From a virus (Duplodnaviria > Heunggongvirae > Uroviricota > Caudoviricetes): 18,974 bases of DNA. Made by a program: the position numbers and the translations under genes. The DNA is taken from the IMG/VR virus record IMGVR_UViG_2711768057_000002; one strand, 5' to 3'. Below are positions 826-18,974 of this stretch, in pieces; the first letter of the stretch is position 1, and each line of letters starts with the position of its first letter. The notes under the pieces were generated by a model, which saw only the letters and a program-made list of their open reading frames with translations, searched no databases and was not told where the DNA came from.

Positions 826-870
826 TGCCCACTCCATGTGATATCGATTGCAAAGAAAGTAAATCTGTAA

Positions 871-886
871 CTGTATTTATATACAG
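871..886. promoter_or_regulatory. LexA (SOS) box of dinD: CTGTATTTATATACAG
   Basis: Perfect CTGT-N8-ACAG palindrome with AT-rich spacer; the extended site AACTGTATATAAATACAGTT (read on minus strand) matches the dinD SOS box as I remember it. Confidence 0.85.
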
Positions 887-969
887 TTGTGAGTATCTCA
901 CGTTCTCAGTGTGCTGGGCAAAAAAACATCGCAAAATCTGGAGCAGGCACGCAAAACAGAATTGAAGTT

Positions 970-1011
970 GCGGGGAAGAAAAATGCCGCTCTGTTTGAGT
1001 GGGCGGCATTT
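970..1011 (-). terminator. Putative rho-independent terminator (minus strand) upstream of the dinD promoter
   Basis: Inverted repeat AAATGCCGC(981-989)/GCGGCATTT(1003-1011) with 13-nt loop; on the minus strand the stem is followed by TTTTCTTCCCC. Confidence 0.4.
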
Positions 1012-1514
1012 GTGAAGGCTGAAAAGTAAGAATTAGTGTTACGAGTTACTCAATATTGAATCTGTTTGTAGAGTGTTGGCTTCAATGCCGCATTGTAGCT
1101 GGTTTCTTTCTAATGTGGTTTTTGATTATGTACACCCTTATGTACACAGTTTTTTCTGGTGCTATCCGCGCAATTGAAGGTGTGGGCATAATTTTGCCTC
1201 TATTGTGATAATCACAATTCTTCTTGTGTTGTGCTCATCATCCAGTTCATCGAGTTTCTACCAAGAGCGTTTTACGCGCTGGCCGAAGCTATTTTGGTTG
1301 CTTTGGCCTGAAGCCATTACCTACATCCCTCATGATTGAGGTGTGTAACCATGTTCAGGCTCGTTGTCCTGTGCGCGCGTATTGCTCGTGAAATTGCTGT
1401 ACACAATTAAGCTCTGCGATATTAGGTTTTATAAGGTTCTCGCATCCTTGTGAGGCGGCAGAATCAGTAACTACCTGATATTCCCGCCAACGAAAAAATG
1501 CGTTGGCTGGCAGA

Positions 1515-1614
1515 GTGCAAATTTGCACGATGACCTAACCCATTGATTCTTTCGAAAACCCCCATTGGGGGAAAAGCCTAACCCATTGGTTTTCCCACAA
1601 TCCTCAATTTGAGG
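1515..1614. repeat. Structured noncoding segment: palindrome GTGCAAATTTGCAC (1515-1528), direct repeat CCTAACCCATTG x2 (1534-1545, 1577-1588), hairpin CCCCC-ATT-GGGGG (1559-1571), palindrome CCTCAA-T-TTGAGG (1602-1614)
   Basis: Read directly from sequence; no ORF of 60 aa or more in 1010-1687 on either strand. Confidence 0.5.
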
Positions 1615-1687
1615 AATGTACCTAAAACCATTTTTATAGCTCCGATCCCTTCAAAGTGAGGGGTAATTTGCCAAAACAGAGAGAGCA

Positions 1688-1975
1688 TTACTGTCTCTGG
1701 CAATCTTTATAGCGATAACGCCTGAAGTACCCTCTCGCTTCCTCATCCATACCAAGAGCCGAATGAGTCCGCTTAACTGCCTGTCTTAAATCTCCGAATC
1801 TGTCTGTAGTTGCTGGTGGGCGTGCCGCCTTACGGATACATTCAGATCGTCTGTTTGCTGCATGTTCACGTTCTTTATCGCCATCTGCCAGCATCATGAC
1901 TTCTGCCCATCGTGCGGCAGCTCTCCGGTATAGCCCTTTTGACTCCAGCTCTTCAGCTTTCCTGTCCCTTATCAT
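1688..1975 (-). CDS. Small basic regulator, PerC-family-like (95 aa)
   Basis: N-terminus MIRDRKAEELESKGLYRRAAARWAEVM resembles the PerC-family pattern (AE-LE-KGL-RRAA-RW) from memory; SD GAGAGG 6 nt upstream of ATG; TATATAAT -10-like element about 20 nt further upstream. Confidence 0.6.
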   Translation of the reverse strand: MIRDRKAEELESKGLYRRAAARWAEVMMLADGDKEREHAANRRSECIRKAARPPATTDRFGDLRQAVKRTHSALGMDEEARGYFRRYRYKDCQRQ

Positions 1976-2011
1976 TTCTGCCTCTCAGATTATATAGATA
2001 AGCAAAAAGGT

Positions 2012-2132
2012 GTTGGTTCAGTTGGTTCAGTTGGTTCAATTTGTAAAGAGCGTTGTTTTTATTGTGTTTTTTCTAAAATATTGAACCAACATCAACTCAT
2101 TTTGAACCAACACAGCCCAGCTCTGAACCAAC
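2012..2132. promoter_or_regulatory. Operator/iteron array: GTTGGTTCA x3 in tandem (2012-2038) and its reverse complement TGAACCAAC x3 (2092-2100, 2103-2111, 2124-2132)
   Basis: Six exact copies of a 9-mer forming a large dyad in the divergent intergenic region between the PerC-like gene (minus) and the RHH/HTH gene (plus). Confidence 0.7.
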
Positions 2133-2185
2133 AACACAGCGATAGATTTGTGATTGGTCCGTTATTTTCTGGCTGATATTTGAGC

Positions 2186-2217
2186 GTATAACAGTGTTAT
2201 ACAGTGGTATACTGTAT
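2186..2217. promoter_or_regulatory. Tandem palindromes ATAACA-G-TGTTAT (2188-2200) and ATACAGT-GGTAT-ACTGTAT (2199-2217) just upstream of the 2235 start
   Basis: Perfect inverted repeats read from sequence, 18-47 nt upstream of the plus-strand ORF start; position is typical of an autoregulatory operator. Confidence 0.45.
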
Positions 2218-2234
2218 GGATATTACTCACTGAT

Positions 2235-2675
2235 ATGGTCTTTGCAATGAGCAAATCTAATCTGATCGCGTTCCGCATCCCATCTGAATTGCAGGATGAG
2301 TTTAATCGGTCTGTTCTCGCTTCTGGAGGGGATAAAACCTCCTGGCTTGTTGATGCGATTCGCATGAAGCTGAGACAGACGGAAAAGTCTATTGATTTAC
2401 GAATGCTTGGGCTGGTGGAGCGCATGGAAAAAGCCGCAGCATCGCTTATTGCCGGAAAGCCGAACATCCCACCAAAGCCATATAACGAAACGGCAGTTAT
2501 AAAGATCATTGCCGATACCATCCGACAGGGATTTGATAATGGGCGTGTGATAGCTGAACGGCTCAATGAAGCAGGCTACCAAACAAAAGCTGGTAAAGCG
2601 TGGGATAAAGACATTTACAGCGCGTGGAAGCGTCAGGGTAACAATATTAAAAGAATCAATACGCTGCTTCAGTAA
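2235..2675 (+). CDS. Small DNA-binding regulator: RHH-like N-terminus plus recombinase-type HTH-like C-terminus (146 aa; start may be ATG at 2247)
   Basis: N-terminal LIAFRIPSELQDEFNRSV is a strand-helix pattern typical of ribbon-helix-helix proteins; C-terminal IAERLNEAGYQTKAGKAWDKDIYSAWKR resembles the DNA-binding 'recombinase' motif of serine-recombinase-type proteins; the overlapping antisense ORF 2162-2566 looks non-protein-like. Confidence 0.6.
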   Translation: MVFAMSKSNLIAFRIPSELQDEFNRSVLASGGDKTSWLVDAIRMKLRQTEKSIDLRMLGLVERMEKAAASLIAGKPNIPPKPYNETAVIKIIADTIRQGFDNGRVIAERLNEAGYQTKAGKAWDKDIYSAWKRQGNNIKRINTLLQ

Positions 2676-2704
2676 TTGATCAGTGTATAAATGATATTTA
2701 TCGC

Positions 2705-3682
2705 TCAATCGCTCCCTTTCCGCCCTTCAGCTACAGGGTCGTTGTCGGCGATAACAAAACCTAAGTCCTGAGAGAATCTCTCTCGTGGGAATCCTTTGGC
2801 AGGTAAACCCATTGAATCATATCCACATCCGGGAACATTTGGTTTAGAGTCAATAAGGTCTGCAATTTGCCGAAGCCATGTTGATCCCGGACCAAGTTGT
2901 TTAACTAAGTACCAGATAATACAGATCGCGCTAAAAATCCTCTCGCAACTCTCTGGATGGAGATTAAGTCCGTCAAAGTATTCATTATCCGGTACTGGAA
3001 CTCGGGGATGCTTTCTATTCCATATTCTGGAATGGTGAGCGCAACGATTCCTTATGAGATTAAGGCACTTCAACCATTTTGCAAATGTCTGCTTATTATC
3101 AATGCCAAAACGACGTATAATTTTCCCCTGCATATGACCATTAAGCATCGCATAATATTTAGACATCTGACCAAAATCCCAGGTCTCCACCGCCACCCAA
3201 AATGGAATCTCCTTGCCTTGGCTTCGATGCCATTCAATACAGTCATCTCTGCTTTCGTCTAATTTTACTTTTTGCTTATACACCCAATGCTCGAAGGCAG
3301 ATGAGAATTTTGGATTAATGTATTTTGATGACATGTAGGCAAGTGGATCATTGCGACCAACCTCATGCGCGATGACTGAACGAACATGAATCTCTATTCT
3401 TTCGATAGCATCAATCATCAAAAGACGCAGTTTTTTGTCAAAAAGATATAGATCGTACGTCTTCTCGAAACTGGTACCAGCAAGAAATCGGTCTGTTCTG
3501 TACGAAAGACCTTTATCTGTTGTCGCAATAATTCTTGATGGGTACCAAAAACCTGACAATCGATAATATCCAACCTGCGACAGCTTACGTATCGCACGAT
3601 TTCGATCATTGATAATCATGCCACGTTCAAGTAGCAATCCTAGCAATTCGTGATAGTCCTTATGAGGCTTTGCGGCAATCAT
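2705..3682 (-). CDS. Abi_2-family abortive infection protein (AbiD/AbiF-like), about 325 aa from ATG at 3682 (ORF track extends to a GTG at 3727)
   Basis: Hallmark Abi_2 motifs: N-terminal HELLGLLLERGMIINDRNRAIRKLSQVGYYRLSGFWYP, central LYLFDKKLRLLMIDAIERIEIHVRSVIAH, C-terminal LIRNRCAHHSRIWNRK; AT-rich relative to flanks. Confidence 0.8.
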   Translation of the reverse strand: MIAAKPHKDYHELLGLLLERGMIINDRNRAIRKLSQVGYYRLSGFWYPSRIIATTDKGLSYRTDRFLAGTSFEKTYDLYLFDKKLRLLMIDAIERIEIHVRSVIAHEVGRNDPLAYMSSKYINPKFSSAFEHWVYKQKVKLDESRDDCIEWHRSQGKEIPFWVAVETWDFGQMSKYYAMLNGHMQGKIIRRFGIDNKQTFAKWLKCLNLIRNRCAHHSRIWNRKHPRVPVPDNEYFDGLNLHPESCERIFSAICIIWYLVKQLGPGSTWLRQIADLIDSKPNVPGCGYDSMGLPAKGFPRERFSQDLGFVIADNDPVAEGRKGSD

Positions 3683-3852
3683 AGTGGCGAAACAAAAGAT
3701 AATAAAAGGCCCGACCGTGAAACTCACATGCCTGAAATCGGCGGCGGAGAAACAGAGGATCGGGCTCGGTTGCCCGTAACTCTATCCGAAGTTATCCACA
3801 TGTCAATGCACAGTTACTTAGGAAACTAACATAGATACTATCATCACTCACG

Positions 3853-3875
3853 AAAAACCACTATATGTGGTTTTT
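3853..3875. terminator. Bidirectional rho-independent terminator-like hairpin AAAAACCAC-TATAT-GTGGTTTTT
   Basis: 8-bp stem flanked by an A-tract and a T-tract, so it reads as stem plus U-run on either strand; sits between the 4156 ORF end and the Abi gene start. Confidence 0.5.
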
Positions 3876-4155
3876 ATTCATATCGTTATCCACTACAGGC
3901 TGTGTCAATAATTTTTACCTATTAATTGGGTAATTTCTACATTTTCCTATGCTGGCTAGTTTCTCTACTGAAAAGTTGGCACTCCTTAATCGCTTTTCGG
4001 TTAATACTATCGGTCTTCATATTGCCAGCAGCATACGCCATCCGATAATTTCGATGCTACGCGCGCGTACTTGTCGCAAAATATCAGGCAAAGGCCAGAT
4101 TCAGAACGTCGTGATAACCACCAGCACAACATGAGATGTCATGTAACACGATTTA

Positions 4156-4473
4156 TCACACCAGATACATGTGATTGGTGTACCCGCATAAAACATTGTC
4201 ATAGCGCGTCCTGTGCGCATATACGCCGATAATCAACACATCGCCACCACTCTGACTTATGTAGAGAACAGTTTTATGGTACTCCCCTCCATCGTGCGCG
4301 TACTTGTCTCGAAATTGGTGTTTTGCTGTGGCAGTGATATCAGAAAAATCTTCCTGTTTCACATAAAGCGGATATGCGCGTACTGTAACGGCCCCATCAA
4401 CTGGGAGCGGATTTGAAATCCCGACCCAAGCTATGTACCAAATGCCATGTCTTGGATATATGATGATTGCCAT
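4156..4473 (-). CDS. Hypothetical protein (start uncertain; ORF open to 4602)
   Basis: C-terminal about 80 aa have protein-like composition, but no SD precedes either candidate ATG and the 5' part overlaps the better-supported plus-strand membrane ORF. Confidence 0.25.
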   Translation of the reverse strand: MAIIIYPRHGIWYIAWVGISNPLPVDGAVTVRAYPLYVKQEDFSDITATAKHQFRDKYAHDGGEYHKTVLYISQSGGDVLIIGVYAHRTRYDNVLCGYTNHMYLV

Positions 4474-4501
4474 TCTAAACAAAGCTAAAGGGAGGGTTGG
4501 T

Positions 4502-4858
4502 GTGAGGGGGCAGGCAGTTATAATTATTTTGTTGGGTTTAATTGTCGCAAAGTTATACCCGACTTTATCGATGGTGTTTTTTGCCATTATTGGCGCAGCC
4601 ATCTTTACTTATATCATTAAACATACCGCCTTGTGGTTCTATAAAATTGATATAGTTCAGAAGTTTGTACGTCCTGTGTCGATGTTATTACTAGCATTAA
4701 TACCAATTGGTGTTGCTTATGTAATTGATGTTTTTTACCCTTCGGACACTGAAAGGTGGTTGATAGTTTTGTATTGTTATATTGGTGTAGCTCTCTTTTG
4801 TGGATTTCATTGGTGTTTCGAAAAGATCAATGACTCTATTTCAAAGAATAAAGATTGA
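4502..4858 (+). CDS. Small integral membrane protein, about 4 predicted TM helices (118 aa from GTG at 4502)
   Basis: Strong SD AAGGGAGGG (4489-4497) 5-6 nt before GTG; four hydrophobic stretches (AVIIILLGLIVAKL, MVFFAIIGAAIFTYII, VSMLLLALIPIGVAYVI, WLIVLYCYIGVALFCGF); long open frame in AT-rich DNA; convergent with the 705-aa gene; GGCCA-TCCG-TGGCC hairpin right after the stop. Confidence 0.5.
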   Translation: MRGQAVIIILLGLIVAKLYPTLSMVFFAIIGAAIFTYIIKHTALWFYKIDIVQKFVRPVSMLLLALIPIGVAYVIDVFYPSDTERWLIVLYCYIGVALFCGFHWCFEKINDSISKNKD

Positions 4859-4877
4859 GGCCATCCGTGGCCATTCA

Positions 4878-6995
4878 CTAGTCATTATCTGGATCATTAG
4901 ATAGCCAAGTAATGATGCCCAGTCTGGCGATGGTCCGTTTTTCCTGTTCAGGAAGAGAGTTAAAAAAACTCTTCCATTGAGGGGAGCGCCTGATACGTGA
5001 ATCAACAATGTGCCCAGGCGCTTTTCCGTGTAGATTTTTTACTGCGCTCTGGAAGGCTGGCGAGGCAATTAATTTATCCGCAGCATCAGCCGCCCCTGCT
5101 CCACCAGCTAATCGAGCTTTACTCGCCAATCTTGCTCCAATATCAGCCCCAGCAATGGCTCCAAGCGATCCAAAATGAGCGCCTACCATCGTGCCTATTT
5201 TTTGAATGTGTTTTGCTGCTAGTTCGTATGGAGCTGTTACCCGATTAAATCTGTTTACAAACTCATTCAGCTTACCAGTAGATATTTCATGCGCTTTAGC
5301 ATTTTTTATTGCTCTGGCAACTTTGTATACATCATATAGTCCGCTCATTGTTTCTTTTGGCAAATGTTCAGCCAAAGTCTTTAGCTGTCCACTGTGTTGC
5401 AAGTTTTGCCACCAATCTGCAAAGCCAGATGGATTAAAGTCGGCCCCACGCTTCCCAGAGGAAAGCATATCTCTTAATGCTGTTCCTACTAGCTCCCTTC
5501 GCAATGTTCTTGATGGAGTATTTTGCATAATCTCACGAAACCCTCTCGCATCACCTTTTGCCATAGATTGAAGAGAATTCGTTACTTTATACGCTATATC
5601 CCCATTAAGTGTTTTCCCGCGAAGATTTACCATTTGCCTTTCTAAGTTTTTTCTCATAGCTACAAGGCGTTGTGCGACTTCGAAATCTCGCAAGTATCCA
5701 GTATTGGATAAGACAGATTTTTGGTCTTCAGCTAAAGCTCCATATAGTCTTGATAGCGCTTCTTTATCAGCATCTTTGTATGGCCCCTGCTTTTTATTTA
5801 GGGCATCACCAACTAAACGCCTTTGCCTGTTTAAATTTGCATACGTTAGGATGCTATCTGGGCCGGGGTTTATTGCTGTAAAAACTCGCTTTTCTATTGG
5901 GTCAAGATTATCCCACCCTCCTAAATCATCAGCGATTTTTTCCAGCATAGTGCTTGTGTTATTTGCTTCGACTTTTGTTCTTGGTGATAGAGCGGAATCA
6001 ACACGTTTATATAACTGATCACTACGGTTTTTTAGTGCTTCCATTCTACTATTTATCTGATAAATATATTTTTCGCTCATAGCTAACGCATCTGGCGCAC
6101 CAGCAACATCATCGATTATCTTGCCAGCACTAGAGGCTAATTCGCTTATTGCTTTATCTTCTTGAGCTTTTAACGCTGATCCTGTCCGTGACTTTAGGGC
6201 TTGCTCTACAGCTTGGTATTGCTCATTTCCTGATAAATGAGAAGGAAGAACTGAATCAACATGAAGCCTATTTGCAGCCTCAACAATTTCTTTCTGAGGT
6301 TTTAGATCTAGCCCTTCAAGCGAAGAGGCAAGATTTGGGTTGCCTTGTGCAGATAACTTACGAATTTTCTCTTCGGCAGGAGTAATCCCCTCAATATCTG
6401 GAATCGAAGAAACATTCTTCTTGGTTAATTTCCCAGCTATTTTATTAATTGCAGGGCCAGCAAGTTCGGCTACAGGGCCAGCCACAGCGCCAATAGCAGC
6501 GCCGGAAGCAACATCGCTATTTGTTCCATTGGCTACAATAGCCCCTTCTCCAGCACCAAGCCCTGCGGCGGCAGCCAGTCTTGCCGCCCCTTTGGGAACC
6601 TGAGAAATAATCCCACCACCACTAACAAATGGCGCTGCTTGTCCAACGAACTCACCAACATCTTGTGCGGTTGATGGTTTTGCCGCTAACTTCTGCTGTA
6701 GAGACTGAATTGCGGCTTGCTCTTCTGGTGTCATATCCTGAAACAGGCCAACACCTTTACCAACATCCATCAATCCACTGAGAACGCCATACATAAAACG
6801 GTCGAAACCGTTAGCATTATTAACAACATTTTCCTGTCTGGAATTTTCCTCTGGTGAAACCAAAGGTGATTGCTGCTGTTCTGGTTGGGCATCAAGCACA
6901 AAACCATCAGGAAGCTGTGAACTATCAGGAAACTGTGAGTTATCAGGTTGTTCATCGAGCACAAAACCTTCCGGTAAGATTACATTTGCTGCCAT
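4878..6995 (-). CDS. Hypothetical 705-aa protein: acidic Pro-rich N-terminus with tandem repeat, Gly/Ala-rich hydrophobic segments
   Basis: Long ORF; its ATG overlaps the upstream gene's stop by 16 nt (translational coupling); no catalytic motif recognised. Confidence 0.8.
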   Translation of the reverse strand: MAANVILPEGFVLDEQPDNSQFPDSSQLPDGFVLDAQPEQQQSPLVSPEENSRQENVVNNANGFDRFMYGVLSGLMDVGKGVGLFQDMTPEEQAAIQSLQQKLAAKPSTAQDVGEFVGQAAPFVSGGGIISQVPKGAARLAAAAGLGAGEGAIVANGTNSDVASGAAIGAVAGPVAELAGPAINKIAGKLTKKNVSSIPDIEGITPAEEKIRKLSAQGNPNLASSLEGLDLKPQKEIVEAANRLHVDSVLPSHLSGNEQYQAVEQALKSRTGSALKAQEDKAISELASSAGKIIDDVAGAPDALAMSEKYIYQINSRMEALKNRSDQLYKRVDSALSPRTKVEANNTSTMLEKIADDLGGWDNLDPIEKRVFTAINPGPDSILTYANLNRQRRLVGDALNKKQGPYKDADKEALSRLYGALAEDQKSVLSNTGYLRDFEVAQRLVAMRKNLERQMVNLRGKTLNGDIAYKVTNSLQSMAKGDARGFREIMQNTPSRTLRRELVGTALRDMLSSGKRGADFNPSGFADWWQNLQHSGQLKTLAEHLPKETMSGLYDVYKVARAIKNAKAHEISTGKLNEFVNRFNRVTAPYELAAKHIQKIGTMVGAHFGSLGAIAGADIGARLASKARLAGGAGAADAADKLIASPAFQSAVKNLHGKAPGHIVDSRIRRSPQWKSFFNSLPEQEKRTIARLGIITWLSNDPDND

Positions 6996-8323
6996 TTTCC
7001 GTTCCTGTAAATGATTTTCTGACCAGTTTTAGGGTTGGTTGCCGTTGCGCCTTCTGATATTCCTCCGGTTGCCGCTTTTGCCTGTCCAGTGCCAGCCTGT
7101 GATGTAGGCTGCCCGGAAACATCGTCAAATAGCTTCGCTTTCCTTCTTTCAAGGCTTTTTCTTAGCCCCTGAGGAATAGTTTCTCCATATGTATCGAGAT
7201 ACTCGTCAACCTGCTGGTTAAACTGCTGCCCCATAGCATTGGCGTTGATTTTTGCGGCGTTAACAATGTTATCCTTTGCCTCCTGCGACAGGCCGTTTCC
7301 AGCATTAAGCTGGTCTATGTATCCTTTGATTTGTCCCCATATGCCATCAGACCGCATTACCTGAACCTGTTCGCCTTCACGAACGACTGACTGCGGGTCA
7401 AGAGATTTCATGTAGTTGAAGATAATCCCAAGTTGGGCAGCGCCAGTATTTACCTTGCTAAGGGCTTGCAGAGAGTTTGCCGCCGCTCTGACAGAGTTAT
7501 AATTTTTGCCAAAATTGGTAATGTCAGAATTTAATCCCTTAATTAAGTCTGCTGACGGCTTACCTTTTTGCCCCAGCTCCATTAGCTTCAATCCCATCTC
7601 ATCTGAGTGAATTTGTGCTCGCTGAGCCCTGTCTAGTTGAGCGTTCTGGATATTTGCCCATCCTCTCGCGTTCTCCATGTCAGCCTGACGCATACTTTCA
7701 TCCAGTCGCCCTTGCTCAAGTCGACGACCTTCCATTTGATCTTTGATATCGAAATACTTCTCATGACCGAGAGAAAACAGCGCCAGATTACCTGCGAAAT
7801 GCTGGAAGCCCTGCGGGTCATTAACCTGCATTTCAGCAATAGTTTCTGGAGGGATACCTAAACGACGCATCTCCTGCTCATTATCCATCATGAACCTGCC
7901 AAATGCGCCCTGACCAAGCGATGAGGCTACCTGTGCTTTGAGCGCCAGATTGCCATAATCATCCCTTTGAGCATCATCGACATAACTCATCCCTTTACGG
8001 ACTTCCTCAAACTCTTCTGGGAATGCTGTAATAAGATTACGCATCTGCTCCCTGTCACCGGACGCATAAGCATCTGCATAACCTTTCTGGAATGCCGCTT
8101 TACGCTCCTGCTGTTGCTGCTGCTTATAAATATCAGCAACTCCAGCCAGACCTCGAAGACCTGTCAGACCAACGTTATTTGCACCTGAGCGAGCCAGTTC
8201 ATTGTTTTCGCGGATCAGACCAAGCGTTGCGTTAATGTCGCTTGCCTTTGGCGCATTCTCATTTTGCGCACCAATGCCAGCCAGAAAACCACCAGAATTA
8301 ATACCCTGTTTCCACGTAGCCAT
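6980..8323 (-). CDS. Hypothetical 447-aa protein, Gln/Asn/Ala-rich, probably largely helical (start ATG 8323; track shows GTG 8335)
   Basis: ATG at 8323 lies 4 nt after the stop of the 57-aa ORF (TAAATCAATG); MATWKQGINSGG N-terminus; no Walker or nuclease motifs seen. Confidence 0.8.
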   Translation of the reverse strand: MATWKQGINSGGFLAGIGAQNENAPKASDINATLGLIRENNELARSGANNVGLTGLRGLAGVADIYKQQQQQERKAAFQKGYADAYASGDREQMRNLITAFPEEFEEVRKGMSYVDDAQRDDYGNLALKAQVASSLGQGAFGRFMMDNEQEMRRLGIPPETIAEMQVNDPQGFQHFAGNLALFSLGHEKYFDIKDQMEGRRLEQGRLDESMRQADMENARGWANIQNAQLDRAQRAQIHSDEMGLKLMELGQKGKPSADLIKGLNSDITNFGKNYNSVRAAANSLQALSKVNTGAAQLGIIFNYMKSLDPQSVVREGEQVQVMRSDGIWGQIKGYIDQLNAGNGLSQEAKDNIVNAAKINANAMGQQFNQQVDEYLDTYGETIPQGLRKSLERRKAKLFDDVSGQPTSQAGTGQAKAATGGISEGATATNPKTGQKIIYRNGKWQQM

Positions 8324-8327
8324 TGAT

Positions 8328-8501
8328 TTACCCACGTCCAGTTAAAGTGTAAGCCAGCGCCTTATCCATTAATCCCCGAGCAATTTCGTGGATCGTTGGC
8401 GCAACTCCTACCTCTGATTTTTTACGCTGCTCCTCCTGAATTTTCTTTATCGCTTCCATTTGCTTCTCACTTATCAATACCGGCTTTACTGAAATAGCCA
8501 T
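8328..8501 (-). CDS. Small 57-aa protein MAISVKPVLISEKQMEAIKKIQEEQRKKSEVGVAPTIHEIARGLMDKALAYTLTGRG (not in ORF track; below its size cut-off)
   Basis: Translated by hand from the minus strand; strong SD AAGGGGG 5 nt upstream of ATG 8501; stop TAA 8328-8330; strand-then-helices pattern compatible with a small RHH-like DNA-binding protein (inference). Confidence 0.5.
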   Translation of the reverse strand: MAISVKPVLISEKQMEAIKKIQEEQRKKSEVGVAPTIHEIARGLMDKALAYTLTGRG

Positions 8502-8516
8502 AACGCCCCCTTAGAA

Positions 8517-8563: not shown

Positions 8564-8594
8564 CATTGTGATTGCAAAATATGAAACAAATAGC

Positions 8595-9098: not shown

Positions 9099-9103
9099 TT
9101 TAT

Positions 9104-12589: not shown

Positions 12590-12601
12590 TCTGGCCCCCG
12601 T

Positions 12602-13204
12602 TTAGTGCGTCACTGGTGCTTCTGGGATGCCGTTTTCGTTTAGTTCGGCAATAAAGCTGTTGTGAAGATCGGCAAGCACTTCTCGCCCAAACGAAGTGAG
12701 TGTTCCCTGTTCGACATCGAACATGTTGCTGTAAAAAATGATGGCATTCTTTGTTCCGACATCAACACCATATTTCTCGATCATTGCGCCCTCAATGTTG
12801 TTTGCCATAGCGAGGCGCTCTGCTACTGGATACAGCGGCATGGCGACGATGCCATTGGAATAAACAGAAACCACGGAATGATTGCCACTGTCATCAATAA
12901 TGCTGACGGTGCCGTTTTCCTTTCTCATTTCATTGATGAATGCTGTTGCTATCAGCCAGCGCCACATAATCACGTGATGCTGTGATGTGTAATCGAAATA
13001 TCCCTGGTTGCCGCCACTGGCAATAGCGAGATGTATAAACATGCCTTCATCTGGTTTATCGTCATAATCCCCGGCATCCAGACGATTTACGGCATCAATA
13101 TATGAGACGGTCTCAACGCGTTCTGTCATGCCATCGTTGCTGCGGTGCATGATGTTTACGCCGTCAGGCGTTGCTTCTGCATGGAAAGTTAAGAAATTAT
13201 TCAT
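12602..13204 (-). CDS. Hypothetical 200-aa protein immediately upstream of the primase (start ATG 13204; track extends to 13309)
   Basis: ATG 13204 preceded by SD GAGG 7 nt upstream and located 2 nt after the stop of the upstream ORF (ATGAATAA overlap). Confidence 0.65.
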   Translation of the reverse strand: MNNFLTFHAEATPDGVNIMHRSNDGMTERVETVSYIDAVNRLDAGDYDDKPDEGMFIHLAIASGGNQGYFDYTSQHHVIMWRWLIATAFINEMRKENGTVSIIDDSGNHSVVSVYSNGIVAMPLYPVAERLAMANNIEGAMIEKYGVDVGTKNAIIFYSNMFDVEQGTLTSFGREVLADLHNSFIAELNENGIPEAPVTH

Positions 13205-13418
13205 GTTTCGCCTCGCCTGAATGATTCTGTAACTCATATTTGCCCAACAATTCGTCTGCTTCCTGAATAGCTTCTGGTACGCCATTGAGCAGTGACATAA
13301 CCGCGCCAATCATTAACTTGTCTCTGTTGCTGGGGCTGGCCCCTTCAAGCCAGAACCCTAAAACAGTCTGAACCTGTTCGATGCGACATTGCGCTTCAAT
13401 GAGCTGGATGTTGGTCAT
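13197..13418 (-). CDS. Hypothetical 73-aa protein
   Basis: SD GGAGAG 7 nt upstream; ATGA start/stop overlap with the upstream ORF. Confidence 0.55.
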   Translation of the reverse strand: MTNIQLIEAQCRIEQVQTVLGFWLEGASPSNRDKLMIGAVMSLLNGVPEAIQEADELLGKYELQNHSGEAKHE

Positions 13419-13678
13419 TTCGCACTCTCCACATCGATTAAACCGATATCTATCAGGGAGGTAACTTTTTGTAGCCAGCTATTGATTACTGTCGCCTGTT
13501 CCCCTCCCACCGAGGGAACAATCTCATTCATCACATGAACCAGACCTGTGCGCGCTCTGGTAAGCCGTTCAGTCGCGCAATCTGCGGGAGTGAATGTGTC
13601 TGGATATGGCTCTTCGCGCCCCAGCAATGATTCAATTTCCAGCTCACACGGATGACGATAAATTAAGTTGATATTCAT
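13415..13678 (-). CDS. Hypothetical 87-aa protein
   Basis: SD GGGGGTG 5 nt upstream; ATGA overlap with the upstream ORF. Confidence 0.55.
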   Translation of the reverse strand: MNINLIYRHPCELEIESLLGREEPYPDTFTPADCATERLTRARTGLVHVMNEIVPSVGGEQATVINSWLQKVTSLIDIGLIDVESAK

Positions 13679-13869
13679 TTTTCACCCCCAAGAATTACCA
13701 GCTCGGCACGGGCATCGTTAACCAAAGATGAGCACGCTTTAATCGCATCCACGACATCAGCAGCGTCCATTTCTTCAGCCGAAAGACTGACAGCAATCAG
13801 GACAGCCGCTGCTTGCTCGATTAATTGAAGTGCGGACGTAAGGCGAGGGGTATTAATTGAGTTATTCAT
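13675..13869 (-). CDS. Hypothetical 64-aa protein
   Basis: SD GGGGG 6-7 nt upstream; start overlaps the stop of the 342-aa ORF (ATGAATAA). Confidence 0.55.
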   Translation of the reverse strand: MNNSINTPRLTSALQLIEQAAAVLIAVSLSAEEMDAADVVDAIKACSSLVNDARAELVILGGEK

Positions 13870-14890
13870 TGGTTGCCCCCGTTTTTACTGGCATTTCGCC
13901 ACCTTCCAGCAGGAAATGAACGTCACGAACGGCGAGATCCAATATCGCGAGTAACGCCTTCAGTCTTTCGTCTCGTGAGGGAGAGTTGCTCACCAGAATG
14001 TCGTTAATCACTTCTGTCAGTGTGATGATCTGGCTTGTGCGTTCGAGGGGATCCATATGCACATCGTAGGTTTTAATCATGTGCCACCTCCATGCGGATA
14101 CGACCAGCAAAAAAGCAGACGTGATCGCGCACCAGAGAACGGCGAGCATCGCGTTCAGACTCGGCAGCAATATGATGAATTTTGGCGGTAATTGTCGGGC
14201 AATCGCGGCGAACTGCGGCGATAATCCAGATAAATTGCGGTTTTTGGGTAGGGGTAGTAGCCAGCATGTGGCAGCCTCCTTGATTGATGGTTTATAGCCA
14301 CCGCCCAAGAGACCAATCTTGCTGGCGGTGGACTGTACGGAGTTGGCCTTACTGGCAATCAAGGAAACCAGCCTACCCGAAGGTAGCCCCATACAGCCCA
14401 CCATTGATAAGGTGTGCGTGTGCGCCGATACAAAAAAAGACGCTGGCGCGTCATGTATCGCCTCGATTGTCAGCGGGAGGCCAATCCCGGCACCCGTTTT
14501 ATGAGGTGCCTTATAACCATAAACCGTGTTGCCGCATAACGGCAAGCTCTTTTTTATGGACTCCGAAAACTCACTATTGGAAGCACCAGATGCACAATAC
14601 ATCGCGCTCATTTCGTTAACGTCACGCGCATGGACGAAGGTTTTTGTGGAGTCACTACACGAGCGGAAGACATCATCTACGACCAGAAATTTTCTGGCGC
14701 AGCCGCTGACCTTCTCAATGCTAATATCATCGCCCGAGATTTCTGGTATGGTTAAGGCATCCGTTCCGACCACCAGCAAATGATAAACTTTGCTTGTATC
14801 TGCTGTATTAATGCCTGACTTTGCCGTCATATTGCTGGATTTTGGCGACATACCAGCCAGTGAAAATGTCTTCTTCTGGACGGGTATCAT
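13862..14890 (-). CDS. Hypothetical ORF (342 aa as drawn; possibly composite, see findings)
   Basis: Start at 14890 well supported (SD GGAGG 7 nt upstream, ATGA overlap with upstream gene); the central part has odd composition and an in-frame ATG at 14080 has its own strong SD GGAGGTG. Confidence 0.45.
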
Positions 14891-15066
14891 TGGTTAACCT
14901 CCGCGAACTCCTTCATGAAACGCGCCAGCGGTTGTACGCATGGCGATTGATACCCGTCGCGATAAAACGTCACTCGGTTGTGAGACACGCTTTCGACAGT
15001 AACGAGTGCTCCGTGGGCATCTTTGTAGCGTTTTTGTGGTTGTGGTATTCCTGTTGGCTTAGACAT
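14887..15066 (-). CDS. Hypothetical 59-aa protein (track ORF 14887-15153 trimmed to ATG 15066)
   Basis: SD GGAGG 7 nt upstream of ATG 15066, which overlaps the stop of the antirepressor-like gene (ATGTCTAA). Confidence 0.5.
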   Translation of the reverse strand: MSKPTGIPQPQKRYKDAHGALVTVESVSHNRVTFYRDGYQSPCVQPLARFMKEFAEVNQ

Positions 15067-15892
15067 TGAGCGCCTCCAGACGCTTGGCGAGCCAGCGTTG
15101 CGACAGGCGGGTGAGTTCTCCTTTGCGCTGCTCATATTCCATGCCCATATCAATTAACGTGATATTGGTGCTTTCGAGATATGAGAGGTGCTCAAGCTGT
15201 TCTGCGTTCATATGGTCGCGAGGTTCGCCAGAATAGCCATTTATCCGCGCCCACTGCTTAGCAGTTAGCCCACCAAGAACGATACGAGAAATCATATTGC
15301 TCTCGTTTGTGTAGTGGTGTTGCTGCGTCGTTTTCCCCATCTCGGCACGGGCCATATTCAGCGCATCGCACATTGGCTTAAAGTTGTTTGCGGCACTGAT
15401 ACGGGCTTTTAGCTGGCGACGATAGCGGGCGGCGATTTCAGGCACGCTACGCTGTAATTCTTCCTCGCACTGGATGAAATAACGACGGATAGCGCGACCC
15501 TGATCATTGCGTTCGATCATTGCCAGTTCTTTCGCCATTCCGACACTTAACAGATAGTCTTTGCCGGGTCTGCCAGAGTGCTTAATCTTGCTGTAAGCCG
15601 CGCCATTCGGGCTTTTCCCCAAATTTGGGGAAATTGTTTTATGGACTGAGTAATCGTGCCCAATGGTGAAGTCATATTCAGAGATGCGATCAGTGATCCA
15701 TGTAGAGAAGTCTTTTCCCACGCCCAACGCTTTGTGTAACGCTTTTGCGCTAACAATATTGGTTTCACGCCCACCTATATGACCAGAAATAACCGGGACA
15801 ATTGCGGCAAATTCATTACCGTTAATTGTGCTCAGAGAGGCGTTCAGATGAGGGGCGGCCTCAGAAATTAATCTGCTTTTTTCGATGTTCAT
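15059..15892 (-). CDS. Phage antirepressor-like protein (AntA-type N-terminal domain), 277 aa
   Basis: VSAKALHKALGVGKDFSTWITDRISEYDFTIGHDY matches the AntA/AntB antirepressor N-terminal motif from memory; SD GGAG 8 nt upstream. Confidence 0.65.
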   Translation of the reverse strand: MNIEKSRLISEAAPHLNASLSTINGNEFAAIVPVISGHIGGRETNIVSAKALHKALGVGKDFSTWITDRISEYDFTIGHDYSVHKTISPNLGKSPNGAAYSKIKHSGRPGKDYLLSVGMAKELAMIERNDQGRAIRRYFIQCEEELQRSVPEIAARYRRQLKARISAANNFKPMCDALNMARAEMGKTTQQHHYTNESNMISRIVLGGLTAKQWARINGYSGEPRDHMNAEQLEHLSYLESTNITLIDMGMEYEQRKGELTRLSQRWLAKRLEALNV

Positions 15893-15904
15893 TTTCAGTC
15901 TCCG

Positions 15905-16336
15905 TTAGGCGGCGTTAAACGCGTCCGGGTAGAGTTTCAGAATGTCGGCAATTTCCTGCTGAGAAAGTCCGTTGTGATCATTTATGTTCGCAAGATGGTT
16001 AACATGAGTGATCACTTTCAGAACATCACCACGGCAGGAGAAACGGTAGCGAAGGTGTGTTCCGATACCATCAGGATTCTTTTCGTCGATACGCTCCAGA
16101 GTGATTCCAAGCTGGCGTTCTAACTCTGTTGCATAGTTACGACCAGAAGACAGACGGCAGTAGCGAAGAATGTCATTTTCTGTCCATCCCTCTATACCAG
16201 TACGCAGCATATAGACTCTGGCACGATGCTTTTTCGGTGTGCGCTTTGGTGCTTGAAGGGATTTTGTCAGGGGCGTAACATCAGATACGCGAATATCTGA
16301 ATTAGCCGCCTGTAATGGGCGGTTTTTCTTTTCCAT
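15905..16336 (-). CDS. Hypothetical 143-aa basic protein
   Basis: Start ATG shares one nucleotide with the alpA stop (TGATG overlap). Confidence 0.6.
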   Translation of the reverse strand: MEKKNRPLQAANSDIRVSDVTPLTKSLQAPKRTPKKHRARVYMLRTGIEGWTENDILRYCRLSSGRNYATELERQLGITLERIDEKNPDGIGTHLRYRFSCRGDVLKVITHVNHLANINDHNGLSQQEIADILKLYPDAFNAA

Positions 16337-16539
16337 CAGGCCACCTTCCCGCGGCGTTCTGCTAGCCAGTTGTGAATCTCAACCGCATCAAACGCAGTTA
16401 TTTTTTCTCCCAGCTTTACCGGACGTGGTAGTGAACCGTTTCTTACTTTACGGTCGATGGTGGATACACTAACGCCCAGCAATTCAGCCAGGCGGAAGCG
16501 TCTGATATAGCCTTTTGTAGGAATAGTGTCGGTGTTCAT
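16336..16539 (-). CDS. alpA: AlpA-family phage regulatory protein / excisionase-like HTH protein (67 aa)
   Basis: RFRLAELLGVSVSTIDRKVRNGSLPRPVKLGEKITAFDAVEIHNWL matches the AlpA/Vis-type HTH family pattern. Confidence 0.85.
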   Translation of the reverse strand: MNTDTIPTKGYIRRFRLAELLGVSVSTIDRKVRNGSLPRPVKLGEKITAFDAVEIHNWLAERRGKVA

Positions 16540-16540
16540 G

Positions 16541-16588
16541 CTTCCCGTAACCTCTTAGCGATAGTTGTTGCTTCGTTACGGGAGGAAG
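16541..16588. promoter_or_regulatory. Imperfect inverted repeat CTTCCCGTAAC (16541-16551) / GTTACGGGAGGAAG (16575-16588) in the alpA leader
   Basis: Arms flank a 23-nt loop; the left arm ends 2 nt upstream of the alpA ATG, so in mRNA the SD region could be sequestered; alternatively a DNA operator. Confidence 0.35.
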
Positions 16589-16606
16589 TATCTGTACATA
16601 TATGGA

Positions 16607-16638
16607 CAATAAAAAGGCACAGTAATGATACTGTGCCT
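16607..16638 (-). terminator. Rho-independent terminator (minus strand) after the 321-aa gene: AGGCACAGTA-ATGA-TACTGTGCCT followed by TTTTTATT
   Basis: Perfect 10-bp stem, 4-nt loop, then T-tract on the minus strand; 16 nt downstream of the stop at 16654. Confidence 0.65.
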
Positions 16639-16653
16639 GAATAGTTAGCTACT

Positions 16654-17619
16654 CTACCCCTTACCGTTGGCGGCAGCACGTAAGTGTCTCAAAATCACAT
16701 CTTCATTTGTGATTGCTAACGGTGGAATTTCGTCTTTATGAGCCACTATGCAATCCCGCCACTTCTCAGGGCTTATTTCTTTCTTTTTGCCACGGCATTC
16801 ATCAGGATACTTTGACAAAAGATATATTGCTGATTTGAAAAGTTTTTCCCTGTTTTCAGCATGTCTCTCGGCATTATGGTTGCTATTTTTTATTTCAGGT
16901 ATTAGTTCCTGTTCTACCGCCATTTCGTATCGTTTTTTGCTCTTAGCTGCGTCAAAACTTCCATTAACCTTTGCGTCGTGAAGATATTCTAAATCAGCCT
17001 TTGTTATATAAATGTTTTTATCTGACAGGCTACTCAGGTGAATCTGGGAACTTTGCATTTTGAATTTATATAGATCACAATCAAATGTTGCTTCAAGTCG
17101 CACATATGGCTCTCCACATTCTTGTGAATGATAATGTCGTGTTGTACTACCGCGTACACGCAACAATCCGCATGCAATTGATTTTCTTACAATAAAAGAG
17201 TTTTTGCCAATTTGTTCAAAAACATTTTTATTGTCTCTGTCTTCAACTGTCAGTGGTTTATGTGCATAAAATAGCTCATAAGCACCGCTTTCAGATGCTG
17301 GGATATAAACTTCGTTGCTTGCGCTGGTAATAAGAAAAGGAAATGTAAACCTTACTTCTTCTGGGTACATAAGTAATAAATCAGTTATAAAATCAGCATC
17401 TTTTTTGAAGTGGATGGCGGCATCAGCTTCAATGAAATCAAGAAAGTCAGCATAGACATAAAAGTCTATATGTAGTCTATCTTTCCAATGCCATATATCA
17501 TCAATTTCACAATTTAATAATTTTGATGCTCGCTCTATCGTGCAGTAGTCCAAAGGTGGAATACCTGATTCCTGCCATAAATTTCTATGCACCGCAGTTG
17601 TTTCATGAGAGTCGTTCAT
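16654..17619 (-). CDS. Hypothetical 321-aa protein, AT-rich gene between int and alpA
   Basis: SD AAGGTG 7 nt upstream of ATG 17619; own terminator; markedly AT-rich versus neighbours; no family recognised. Confidence 0.7.
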   Translation of the reverse strand: MNDSHETTAVHRNLWQESGIPPLDYCTIERASKLLNCEIDDIWHWKDRLHIDFYVYADFLDFIEADAAIHFKKDADFITDLLLMYPEEVRFTFPFLITSASNEVYIPASESGAYELFYAHKPLTVEDRDNKNVFEQIGKNSFIVRKSIACGLLRVRGSTTRHYHSQECGEPYVRLEATFDCDLYKFKMQSSQIHLSSLSDKNIYITKADLEYLHDAKVNGSFDAAKSKKRYEMAVEQELIPEIKNSNHNAERHAENREKLFKSAIYLLSKYPDECRGKKKEISPEKWRDCIVAHKDEIPPLAITNEDVILRHLRAAANGKG

Positions 17620-17714
17620 TGCGTCACCTTTTACGCTGCGCCTTATTTTGTGATTGAGCCAGGCGGTAAGGCTTCCCGCTTTTCGCCCCGTCGAGCTAGG
17701 CTCAATCTATTCAG

Positions 17715-18974
17715 TTAGTTCGCCCTTCTGAGAGGCGTTACGTTGTAGTCTTTTCCGCTTTCCAGTGCCACCAGCAGATCAGCCCACTGTGCCAGTGCTG
17801 CTTTACGCTCATCAAAATACTGATGGCGGTTATAAATCCCCTCTACGCCCTTAATGCGATGATTGAGGCATCGTTCCGCCACAACAGGATCAACACCCAA
17901 CGCTGCTAAATGAGTACGTGCGGTGCGTCGGAAGTCGTGAATCGTGAAATTAGGCACATCCGGCATTTCGGCGCGAACCTTAGCCAGTGCTACGGGTAAA
18001 GTGCTTTCCTGAATATGTGGGATCATTCTGTTTTGCATCTTCCTGGCCGGAAGCACCCATGCGCTATTACATGAAAAGGTGTGTAGCTCTCTCAACCATT
18101 CAACGGCTGGGGAAGGTAGAGGTATATCAATAGGGTCTCCGTTTTTGCTGCGTTCTTCCGGCAAATGCCATACCGCACCATCTAAATCAAACTCTTCCCA
18201 TCGTGCGGCGCATAACTCCATCTTACGAACGCATAGTGCCAGCAATAGCTTAAATGTCAGTTCGTTCTGGCGGCTGAATCCTTTTGCGGTGCGCATAGCC
18301 TCGAATAGCCTGATAAGCTCATCGCGAGTTAGCCAACGGTCGCGGGAAACCTCTTTACCACCAGCATCAGATACTTCAAACGCTGAACAAGGGTTTATCT
18401 CCAGAGCGTGGCGTTTTATCCCATAGTCAAAGATACGGCGTGTCCAGCGTAATACATCTGTTGCTATCGTTGGTGCTCCTCGGTCAACGATACCTTTCAA
18501 CATGTCGTCAATGTGGCGTGGCTTAACGTCCTCTACCTTCATATGCCCAATGCAGGGGTTAATATCCTTATCAATTCTCCGGCGAAGGATATCGGGATGT
18601 TTCCATCTCGGAAGTATCTGGCGCTCGAAGTATTCGGAGGCCAGATCTGAAACACGCATGGCGTTTTTCTCAGCCTCCATTTTTGCCAGTGCTTCAGCTT
18701 TTCGTTCCTGTTTCTCTGCTGCTACGTCATAGCCAAGAGCAACTCTGGCTGACAGCTCTTTTGCTGTTTCTCTGGCTTTTGATAGTGACAGTTCGGAGTA
18801 AGAGCCTATAACCATAGCCCGCTGCTTTCCTGCGAGCTTATAGCGGAATCGCCAGAACGGGACTGTGTAGTTTTTGGGGTAGCAAATATAAAGGCCGTTG
18901 CCGTCTGCCTTGCCATCAAATCTGTCTCCCGCCTTTATCCATGCGCGGATCTGCATATCTGTGAGTTTTGGCAT
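17715..18974 (-). CDS. Tyrosine site-specific integrase, P4/CP4-57 family (419 aa, start codon is the last 3 nt of the window)
   Basis: N-terminus MPKLTDMQIRAWIKAG...GLYICYPKNYTVPFWRFRYKLAGKQRAMVIGSYSELSLSKARE is the typical P4-like integrase arm-binding domain; C-terminal catalytic region HDFRRTARTHLAALGV...LNHRIKGVEGIYNRHQY carries the R...H-x-x-R...Y signature. Confidence 0.95.
   Translation of the reverse strand: MPKLTDMQIRAWIKAGDRFDGKADGNGLYICYPKNYTVPFWRFRYKLAGKQRAMVIGSYSELSLSKARETAKELSARVALGYDVAAEKQERKAEALAKMEAEKNAMRVSDLASEYFERQILPRWKHPDILRRRIDKDINPCIGHMKVEDVKPRHIDDMLKGIVDRGAPTIATDVLRWTRRIFDYGIKRHALEINPCSAFEVSDAGGKEVSRDRWLTRDELIRLFEAMRTAKGFSRQNELTFKLLLALCVRKMELCAARWEEFDLDGAVWHLPEERSKNGDPIDIPLPSPAVEWLRELHTFSCNSAWVLPARKMQNRMIPHIQESTLPVALAKVRAEMPDVPNFTIHDFRRTARTHLAALGVDPVVAERCLNHRIKGVEGIYNRHQYFDERKAALAQWADLLVALESGKDYNVTPLRRAN

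Follow-up and report, generated by a model that had tools for sequence, protein, structure and literature searches.

An EcCIMP1-family satellite island at the 3' end of yicC carries P22-type DNA-ejection genes behind a predicted LexA-controlled promoter

EcCIMP1 is a 19,963-bp phage-inducible chromosomal island (PICI) at thrW in Escherichia coli MP1 (Pick, Stadel & Raivio, ISME J 2025; PMC11773190). It excises only with the P22-like phage Kapi1, requires alpA and int for excision and transfer, and adds to superinfection immunity against Kapi1, no known defence system having been found in it (PMC11773190). Its authors place the EcCIMP1 family as a phylogenetic outgroup to classical PICIs and report three genes similar to "DNA transfer"/DUF2824 proteins, for which they suggested a packaging role (PMC11773190). 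Here we analyse an 18,974-nt viral record (IMGVR_UViG_2711768057_000002; this whole stretch is called the window). From about position 1046 to beyond 18974 we take it, with a probability of about 0.8, to be an EcCIMP1-family island of about 18.1 kb and a satellite of P22-like (Lederbergvirus) temperate phages. A P22-like helper is indicated because the two large open reading frames (ORFs) of the island are P22-type ejection proteins. Judged by its genes, the island is an EcCIMP1-family PICI and not a P4-like satellite; it is an ordinary member of a recently described, very widespread family, and differs in integrase and attachment site. How widely the family is spread is shown by its backbone protein of 73 amino acids (aa), which has identical copies in 46,971 blocks of the assemblies searched.

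The 22 ORFs of the window were scanned against Pfam and PHROGs and some also against NCBIfam and PADLOC. Sibling islands were gathered by exact-protein look-ups in E. coli assemblies with two markers, the 57-aa and 73-aa ORFs. The reference relative is G3X16-2 (locus L001), 99.5% identical to the window, and family gene-order counts refer to 20 contexts among the matches listed. A wider scan with the gp20-type protein, in a collection holding one genome per species, returned one partial locus only. EcCIMP1 and the window island share the order int, alpA, 143-aa protein, AntA, DUF4222, Ash/icd, small ORFs, primase, short ORF, ejection genes, cargo and PerC. They also share the promoter/LexA-box region upstream of the ejection module. 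AntA is 97% identical between them, the 200-aa protein 85% and the N-terminal half of the primase (first 351 aa) 85%, and for the 73-aa protein L001 and EcCIMP1 share one accession (WP_000181940.1). The two islands differ in five respects: (i) EcCIMP1 has the integrase and site of thrW (tRNA-Thr, between proA and yagU), whereas the window island sits at the yicC 3' end; (ii) EcCIMP1 has a DUF927 helicase, whereas the window island has DUF5906 together with extra 76- and 245-aa ORFs; (iii) EcCIMP1 carries gp14-gp7-gp20-gp16 but the window island gp20 and gp16 only; (iv) EcCIMP1 gp20 is 24% identical to that of the window, and its gp16 has 906 aa with an SLT domain; (v) EcCIMP1 has a second alpA/xis-like gene that the window island lacks, while the window island has AbiD.

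The attachment site is a swappable module and not a family-defining one, since a near-identical island body is found at thrW in W284 (NZ_CP162987.1, L007), where it is combined with a thrW-type integrase and an EcCIMP1-type AlpA. The ejection genes of that island are 100% identical to those of the window, and its primase has the same accession as in L001. Because the body matches and int and AlpA do not, int and alpA are exchanged as a unit with the rest shared; across the family the type of AlpA co-varies with the type of integrase. W284 shows a recent int-alpA swap between attachment sites, by which one island body moves between yicC and thrW. The 20 listed contexts lie at yicC or thrW, and two of the islands stand in tandem with a P22-like prophage. 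At L008 and L023 satellite and putative helper are neighbours, the thrW-type island adjoining the right end of a P22-like prophage marked by tailspike, gtrABC and Arc/Mnt/Ant genes (L008 1-6459, L023 1-4737). P22 itself also uses thrW as its att site.

Other satellites supply some virion proteins themselves. Capsid-forming PICIs (cf-PICIs) encode capsid, portal, protease, connector and terminase and take only tails. The window island resembles them in supplying virion proteins, but those that it encodes are internal ejection proteins alone, and it depends on taking the remainder of the particle. With EcCICFT073 and EcCIEDL933 it shares a unidirectional int-alpA-primase order, a size of 10-20 kb, an AlpA activator, PerC-type regulators and, save for its two ejection-protein genes, the lack of morphogenesis and lysis genes. 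Those islands, however, have an Rpp/cos packaging module after the primase, where the window island has P22 ejection genes (PMC6092414, PMC6739421).

A preliminary description of this stretch, made from its letters alone, had left the 447/705-aa pair as unknowns. This was wrong, as the pair are P22 gp20- and gp16-type ejection proteins (Table 1) and so candidate genes for helper exploitation. The alignment of the 447-aa protein to PF16928, the P22 gp20 injectosome translocase, covers profile positions 1-208 of 218, and the protein is 75% identical to gp20 of Kapi1 and 72% to that of SEN22. By tblastn the 705-aa protein is 63% identical over residues 204-701 to gp16 of Sf101/APC_JM3.2 and 41-44% identical over its full length to gp16 of E212, EC.P3 and Kapi1; its identity to gp16 of one P22-like prophage is 26% (E 1e-17). 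PF26808 was not among the precomputed Pfam matches for this gp16 type, and PDB sequence searches with gp16 and gp20 gave nothing useful. The closest phage relatives of the two proteins (Kapi1, SEN22, Sf101, E212) are all of the Lederbergvirus type, and the two genes overlap by 16 nt, exactly as in Kapi1, whose gene order runs 14-7-20-16. The window island thus shares with the Lederbergvirus 14-7-20-16-sieA cluster the gp20/gp16 order, the 16-nt overlap and intragenic mosaicism. The phage cluster, however, belongs to a late operon, whereas the island genes stand in a satellite behind a LexA-box promoter of their own, and genes 14 and 7 are absent from the window island. The Pfam and PHROGs scans of the 22 ORFs found no P22-like terminase, portal, scaffold, coat, tail hub or needle or tailspike gene, and the window family scans no capsid, portal, terminase, tail or lysis gene.

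The gp20 gene is a mosaic whose pieces follow the architecture of the protein. Over residues 1-200 identity is 98.5% to a sibling island and 53.5% to Kapi1; over residues 201-447 it is 91.9% to Kapi1 and 18% to that same sibling. Nucleotide identity to Kapi1 is 89-94% over the first ~190 nt, 41-58% over codons 70-200 and 79-99% thereafter. In P22 gp20 seen in situ, residues 1-47 lie in the gp7 ring, 51-66 form the outer-membrane helix, 68-185 form PP1, 186-255 PP2 and 256-435 a plinth contacting gp16 at the inner membrane (bioRxiv 10.64898/2026.09.03.749273). The mosaic breakpoints, near residues 70 and 200, coincide with these domain borders. Assuming co-linear N-termini, the window protein keeps the gp7-contact residues Q6, S10, N21, N23 and D29 and the membrane residues V51, L53, L56, L59, V62, I65 and Y66, and such positions are mostly invariant over seven island and phage gp20 sequences. 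The N-terminus is thus conserved in a docking-type form, and the periplasmic and inner-membrane-proximal parts have been exchanged freely with phages. Relative to Kapi1, the ratio of nonsynonymous to synonymous substitution rates (dN/dS) is 0.10 over codons 1-69 and 0.086 over codons 201-447 (dS 0.34-0.44). Since dN/dS is ~0.09-0.10 and the gp7-contact and membrane residues are retained, gp20 is, on the evidence of its sequence, maintained as a working channel subunit predicted to be able to dock on phage gp7. Such an ability would fit an island copy that has no gp7 of its own.

In all 20 contexts among the matches listed, gp20 lies downstream of the primase gene; one deleted island that lacks the primase has gp20 directly after alpA. 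An intact gp16 gene follows in 18 of the 20, being split in L013 and not called in L014. Genes for gp14 (DUF2824) and gp7, both missing from the window copy, accompany them in about a third. The ejection-protein module can thus be regarded as family-defining, and it looks functional. Genes annotated as "phage DNA ejection protein" outside any prophage are common in E. coli genomes, and islands of the EcCIMP1 type would account for such annotation.

The ejection operon, a transcription unit of its own, begins with the gene for a 57-aa protein, preceded by a predicted SOS promoter in which a LexA box lies directly downstream of the -10 element; a Shine-Dalgarno sequence (8512-8506, minus strand) and the ATG of the 57-aa ORF follow 3' of the box. 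The window has two sites with the pattern ACTGT-N8-ACAGT where 0.03 are expected, and the one outside the ejection operon is the SOS box of dinD. The box of the ejection operon is invariant in 8/8 aligned islands, EcCIMP1 among them; LexA is not mentioned in the EcCIMP1 paper (PMC11773190). A conserved ORF of 53-57 aa heads the ejection genes of the family. The exact 57-aa sequence is present in 21,056 assembly blocks, and the gp20 gene follows it in 10/10 contexts among the matches listed. Its AlphaFold2 model (mean confidence score, pLDDT, 77.6) has an extended N-terminus and helices at residues 12-28 and 37-53. Foldseek against PDB, like Pfam, gave no match for it. Since Foldseek against PDB came back empty, the identification of this protein as possibly a ribbon-helix-helix regulator stays a guess from the model. 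The conserved LexA box, of which we found no mention in the related satellite literature, is a modest new lead, and so is the interpretation of the gp20 mosaic in terms of structure.

Between genes 16 and 9, P22-like prophages carry sieA, whose product blocks injection of P22-like DNA; escape mutations map to C-terminal regions of both gp16 and gp20 (PMC10883804). The corresponding position in the islands, convergent with gp16, is a variable cassette slot. In the loci compared (window 4463-4858, plus strand; L003 10570-10968; L004 10529-10966; L008 13740-14354; L010 13769-14158) the slot products have a common N-terminus of about 15 residues, MIAILNxAKGRVGVN, and are wholly different after it; the SieA-like protein of L008 lacks this N-terminus. 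The slot holds a membrane protein in the window, proteins that are likely exported elsewhere, and SieA-family proteins in L008, L020 and L026. We found no mention of such a variable envelope-protein slot at the sieA position in the related satellite literature. The 131-aa window protein itself was considered as a SieA and rejected: it has no phage match, only a sub-threshold match to Bax1-I, and no SieA motif FxRYPxEAxxFNK. Because it also lacks similarity to the L008 SieA-like protein, only position argues for a role in exclusion, which would be one by analogy.

Site-specific integration has placed the island cleanly within the last 21 bp (3' end) of yicC. Its boundaries were checked in three ways, against the empty site of K-12, against occupied sites and against a stand-alone record with a joined attP. 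yicC and dinD are neighbours in K-12, as the preliminary description had correctly stated, with a 220-bp spacer between them, and alignment to K-12 around dinD gives homology that ends at window position 1045, the native spacer being 826-1045. The suggestion that yicC had been lost or replaced is refuted. In related genomes it lies intact just outside the window, 189 bp past the integrase start, as seen in G3X16-2, and it is likewise intact beside the integrase in ISHS7, five further assemblies and cq9 (integrase 100% identical). Copies of the 21-bp att core stand at both island junctions, one on the yicC side and a degenerate one at 1046-1064 on the dinD side. The K-12 sequence of the core, TTATTCGATGTTCTGAATCTG, is the final six codons of yicC plus its stop. 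The yicC-side core supplied by the island reads TTATTCGATATTCTGAATCTG and restores the YicC C-terminus with one synonymous change; the island brings a synonymous copy of the last six codons, and therefore yicC stays intact. The island accordingly comprises window 1065-18974, a 188-bp int-side arm and the core. No tRNA was found within the window, as had been stated.

At the dinD side, an island edge at 838 and a single repeat-rich stretch at 1010-1687 had been proposed. The repeats are real, but the stretch is not one piece: it consists of native spacer to 1045, a decayed att core (1046-1064) and the island att arm (1065-1687), and the island therefore begins at about 1046/1065. Across seven aligned occupied sites the displaced core is nearly intact in the L003 lineage and carries differing small deletions in the others, as expected of a non-coding leftover, the native copy decaying beside the dinD promoter. 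Directly after it, TTTGTAGAG starts the P arm in all occupied sites, as it does in the attP of L019. Two exact repeats of an arm type, TATGTACAC, lie at 1127-1135 and 1139-1147, and the int-side arm holds further TGTACA repeats; repeats of the TATGTACAC type on both arms are likely integrase arm sites. The P arm also contains a 40-nt direct repeat (1534-1573 / 1577-1616) 3' of PerC, each copy of which opens with CCTAACCCATTG and continues with a short palindrome (CCCCCATTGGGGG; CCTCAATTTGAGG).

The attP itself can be read in NZ_LT599831.1 (L019), a 19,226-bp record named "phage_14408_2", which is a circularly permuted sibling island with PerC joined to int. Its junction consists of the int-side arm, TTATTCGATATTCTGAATCTG and TTTGTAGAG, exactly the predicted attP, and suggests an excised or replicating (or concatemeric) form in the sequenced culture. 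An integrase of the yicC type is present in 335/5426 complete E. coli genomes and adjoins yicC at every locus inspected. One O157:H7 strain is on record as having a prophage-like element of 15 kb at yicC (PMC7609406); full-text literature searches for yicC/dinD islands, or for satellites with ejection proteins, found nothing direct. The 3' end of yicC is now defined as a satellite attachment site with known core and attP. At 4096-4107 on the minus strand, in the non-coding interval between AbiD and the membrane protein, 12 nt of the att core recur in inverted orientation (GTTCTGAATCTG); about 0.002 such copies would be expected by chance, but this one was spotted by eye post hoc.

How the satellite would use its ejection genes can be sketched as follows. 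By analogy with EcCIMP1, induction of a resident P22-like helper would switch on alpA, AlpA and Int would excise the island and the primase would replicate it from the iterons. With neither terS nor cos in the island, the helper terminase would package it by headful, one P22-like head taking ~2.3 island copies. LexA would repress the ejection operon until the same SOS signal that induces the helper releases it. As a candidate step, island gp20 and gp16 would then be built into helper procapsids, and the resulting particles would carry an injection channel of an allele other than the helper's. In EcCIMP1 and Kapi1, the one proven satellite-helper pair, the two gp20 proteins are only 24.9% identical. 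In one tandem arrangement of prophage and island, the last 249 residues of the gp16 encoded by the prophage have no detectable similarity to island gp16. The most likely benefit would be entry into cells protected by SieA-type exclusion. We therefore put forward, as a tentative proposal that may well be wrong, that satellites of the EcCIMP1 type re-arm stolen virions, their SOS operon loading satellite gp20 and gp16 (elsewhere also gp14 and gp7) to pass SieA exclusion in lysogens. If so, satellite piracy would here target the delivery of DNA instead of capsid size or the specificity of packaging, in a family that has no genes for either and an apparently SOS-controlled operon for the two proteins that set the SieA sensitivity of P22-like phages. 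It would reach lysogens, the cells that the satellite most needs, and, if confirmed, might explain both the low transfer frequency and the superinfection-immunity phenotype of EcCIMP1.

Several observations weigh against this account of the island as a P22-dependent satellite with an SOS-timed ejection operon. Kapi1 transfers EcCIMP1 very inefficiently, and most EcCIMP1-bearing strains lack a Kapi1-like prophage (PMC11773190). Repression of the operon by LexA is what we infer from the box, itself a sequence prediction, and as the surrounding 150 bp are 97% conserved as a whole, the invariance of the box is unspecific. The gp16 gene is broken in some copies (L013, L014 and L019, the last frameshifted and split by the record ends), and the module is therefore not indispensable for persistence. 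The right junction lies outside the window and is placed from genomes 99.5-100% identical in the adjoining sequence. Finally, the window has no terS and no convincing pac site, the sole lead being a borderline 18-nt match. That match concerns a 23-nt direct repeat (4060-4082 / 4293-4315, with a weaker copy at 1372-1394; core GCGACAAGTACGCG), the core of which matches 14-18 nt inside the terS gene of Kapi1 (18-nt match, 4064-4077 / 4297-4314, E 0.04). The repeats could represent a pac-like site, part of a gene or a chance match; a 148-aa ORF overlapping the repeat has only a 12-residue patch in common with Kapi1 TerS. The P22 pac sequence had no good match in the window (at least 6 mismatches).

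The main alternative keeps the satellite but has gp20 and gp16, perhaps with the envelope protein, act in the resident cell, in superinfection exclusion or interference with the helper. The immunity that EcCIMP1 confers against Kapi1, in an island with no known defence system, would be accounted for in this way (PMC11773190), as would the SieA-family proteins that occupy the slot beside gp16 in some islands. The in situ study moreover describes P22 gp16 as able to act in trans from outside the cytoplasm (bioRxiv 10.64898/2026.09.03.749273). We nevertheless consider this role unlikely. A LexA-repressed promoter would silence the operon in the uninduced cell, just when exclusion is needed; the full length of the proteins, their gp7-docking residues and the phage-like mosaic exchange fit working channel subunits; and the envelope-protein slot alone could account for exclusion.

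Two further explanations are both poorly supported. In the first, which is very improbable, the locus is a dead mosaic in which a decayed fragment of a P22-like prophage (genes 20-16) has by chance become fused to a P4-like int-alpA-primase remnant, immobile and without a helper. It would be in keeping with the missing capsid, portal, terminase, tail and lysis genes, with the few broken copies of gp16, and with the degenerate P4-like remnants that K-12 has at thrW (CP4-6), a site used by some sibling islands. Against it, the architecture recurs in every one of the listed contexts, across integrases and helicases of two types each, two chromosomal sites and many gp20/gp16 alleles; every ORF of the window copy is intact; gp20 has a dN/dS of ~0.09; a separate record contains a precise attP; and the close relative EcCIMP1 is experimentally mobile (PMC11773190).

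The second, that the island is a P4-like satellite of P2-like helpers whose sid, delta and psu have diverged beyond recognition, is barely credible: the relationship to P4 is real in the integrase (25% identity to P4 Int, E 8e-19, tblastn), in the primase domain of the alpha protein (34% over alpha residues 5-314 and confined to that domain, E 5e-41, tblastn), in orf88/AlpA (E 1e-6) and in the C4/CI RNA, but sid, delta, psu and eps give no match above noise up to E 10, no P2/P4 cos is found, the genes run unidirectionally from int in the manner of PICIs, genes related to virions are all of the P22 type, and the nearest relative has a P22-like podovirus as its demonstrated helper (PMC11773190). 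The absence of sid, psu and delta, already noted in the preliminary description, is borne out by tblastn of all P4 proteins and by Pfam and PHROG. Against the six-frame window, sid, delta, psu, eps, cnr, orf151, gop, beta and cII all gave E > 0.1; for epsilon the best value was E 4.1, and the island has an AntA-family antirepressor instead. The P2/P4 cos 19-mer GGCGAGGCGGGGAAAGCAC had no match within 5 mismatches on either strand of the window. P4 and the window island thus have in common a related integrase, an AlpA/Vis-type regulator, an alpha-type primase domain, iteron-based origin elements (PMC8628076) and a C4/CI RNA immunity region that precedes the genes for replication. P4 differs in having sid, delta, psu, epsilon, cnr and cos, all missing here, in its gene order, as the core genes of the window island are co-oriented from int like those of PICIs, and in its helper, a P2-like myovirus, whereas that of the window island is predicted to be a P22-like podovirus. 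The absence of P4 capsid genes would follow from a helper of the P22 type.

The island, read as an EcCIMP1-family satellite, is modular (Table 1). From the integrase end it consists of int, a cargo slot and alpA; a regulatory block; the primase with two inverted iteron clusters; the ejection operon; and cargo (envelope protein, AbiD, PerC). Every credible island gene except two is on the minus strand. The satellite backbone of int, alpA, primase and iterons, recognised in the preliminary description, is confirmed by Pfam and PHROG matches and by iteron statistics.

Table 1. Features of the window, in order of position (1 is the first base of the 18,974-nt stretch).
Feature	Position	Strand	Evidence or remark
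dinD, host gene outside the island	1-825	-	annotated in L001 at 8001-8825; K-12 synteny
dinD SOS (LexA) box ACTGTATTTATATACAGT	870-887		in native dinD-yicC spacer
Decayed att core (displaced native yicC 3' end), int-distal junction	1046-1064		TTACTCAATATTGAATCTG vs K-12 TTATTCGATGTTCTGAATCTG
Island att arm (P arm)	1065-1687		begins TTTGTAGAG directly after core
PerC-family regulator, cargo	1688-1975	-	PF06069 E 5.9e-33
146-aa ORF, cargo region	2235-2675	+	weak PHROG match, phrog_30270 E 1e-4
AbiD/Abi_2 abortive-infection gene, defence cargo	2705-3682	-	PF07751 E 2.3e-52; PADLOC AbiD E 5.7e-58
131-aa predicted membrane protein, convergent with gp16-like gene	4463-4858	+	annotated in L001
gp16-type ejection (DNA transfer) protein, 705 aa	4878-6995	-	phrog_770 E 1.2e-50; phrog_6704 full length E 1e-174
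gp20-type ejection protein, periplasmic channel subunit, 447 aa	6980-8323	-	PF16928 E 1.5e-73
57-aa ORF, operon head	8328-8501	-	two-helix protein
Predicted SOS promoter of ejection operon	8516-8540	-	-10 TATAAT 8540-8535; LexA box ACTGTTGTTTTATACAGT 8533-8516
Terminator-like hairpin (8627-8605) and T-run	8597-8627	-	divides replication operon from ejection operon
Iteron cluster 1, putative origin element	8989-9103		GGTGGTACAGG and variants
245-aa and 76-aa ORFs between iteron clusters	9104-10061	-	no family matches
Iteron cluster 2	10105-10212		inverted relative to cluster 1
Primase-helicase, N-terminal half P4 alpha-related	10238-12589	-	Zn_Ribbon_Prim, Toprim_3, DUF5906
Small backbone ORFs, 200, 73, 87 and 64 aa	12602-13869	-	conserved
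342-aa ORF annotated 'Ash'	13862-14890	-	Phage_ASH Pfam match
P4/P1-type RNA immunity region	14073-14509	-	all inside 'Ash' ORF
icd-like ORF	14073-14267	-	separately annotated CDS in W284 and MP1
C4/CI antisense RNA	14321-14408	-	Rfam RF01695 79.2 bits (gathering score 45)
isrK-like RNA	14433-14509	-	Rfam 65 bits (gathering score 50)
DUF4222 protein	14887-15066	-	Pfam
AntA-family antirepressor	15059-15892	-	Pfam
143-aa conserved protein	15905-16336	-	one homologue named 'PM1773 family' by NCBI
AlpA-family regulator/excisionase	16336-16539	-	PF05930
321-aa low-GC ORF, cargo candidate, between int and alpA	16654-17619	-	GC 0.35-0.41
int-alpA RNA motif	17640-17706	-	Rfam RF02996 60.6 bits (gathering score 35.8); directly 3' of int
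Tyrosine integrase for yicC 3' end	17715-18974	-	phrog_1 E 1.5e-63; start codon is last window base

In the replication module the 783-aa primase is a chimera, its C-terminal helicase domain (DUF5906) being unrelated to that of EcCIMP1. With up to 2 mismatches allowed, the iteron GGTGGTACAGG is matched 16 times where 2.4 are expected, and 0/200 shuffles reach 16. The 245- and 76-aa ORFs are restricted to islands whose primase is the 783-aa DUF5906 protein and are absent from islands of the DUF927 type; the DUF5906 helicase type is always accompanied by both ORFs and by the GGTGGTACAGG iteron set.

AlpA, 36% identical to that of EcCIMP1, is the presumed master activator. The regulatory block lies upstream of the replication genes. 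The 342-aa 'Ash' ORF is probably an over-call across an RNA immunity region of the P4/P1 type. The region at P4 8608-8646 is 90% identical to window 14426-14463, and the P4 ORF that overlaps the cI region has a tblastn match in the window (E 4e-7). Judged by Rfam matches, the arrangement of C4/CI and isrK RNAs is P4/P1-style RNA immunity; we found no mention of these RNAs inside an 'Ash' ORF in the related satellite literature.

Among the cargo genes, PerC is the conserved distal gene, which EcCIMP1 and all relatives seen have in the same place, and relatives also have an ORF annotated at the position of the 146-aa ORF. NCBIfam profiles gave no match to ten island proteins. The 321-aa ORF between int and alpA had no match in Pfam, PHROGs, NCBIfam or PADLOC. 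Its slot is variable, sibling islands holding unrelated proteins of 216, 281, 293 (DUF6387) or 316 aa there, or nothing, and it is a candidate cargo or defence gene. Because the stretch 2646-3752 had no blastn match to the G3X16-2 island, the AbiD allele probably differs from the Abi allele at the same place in that island. The difference resembles a cassette exchange of the defence gene.

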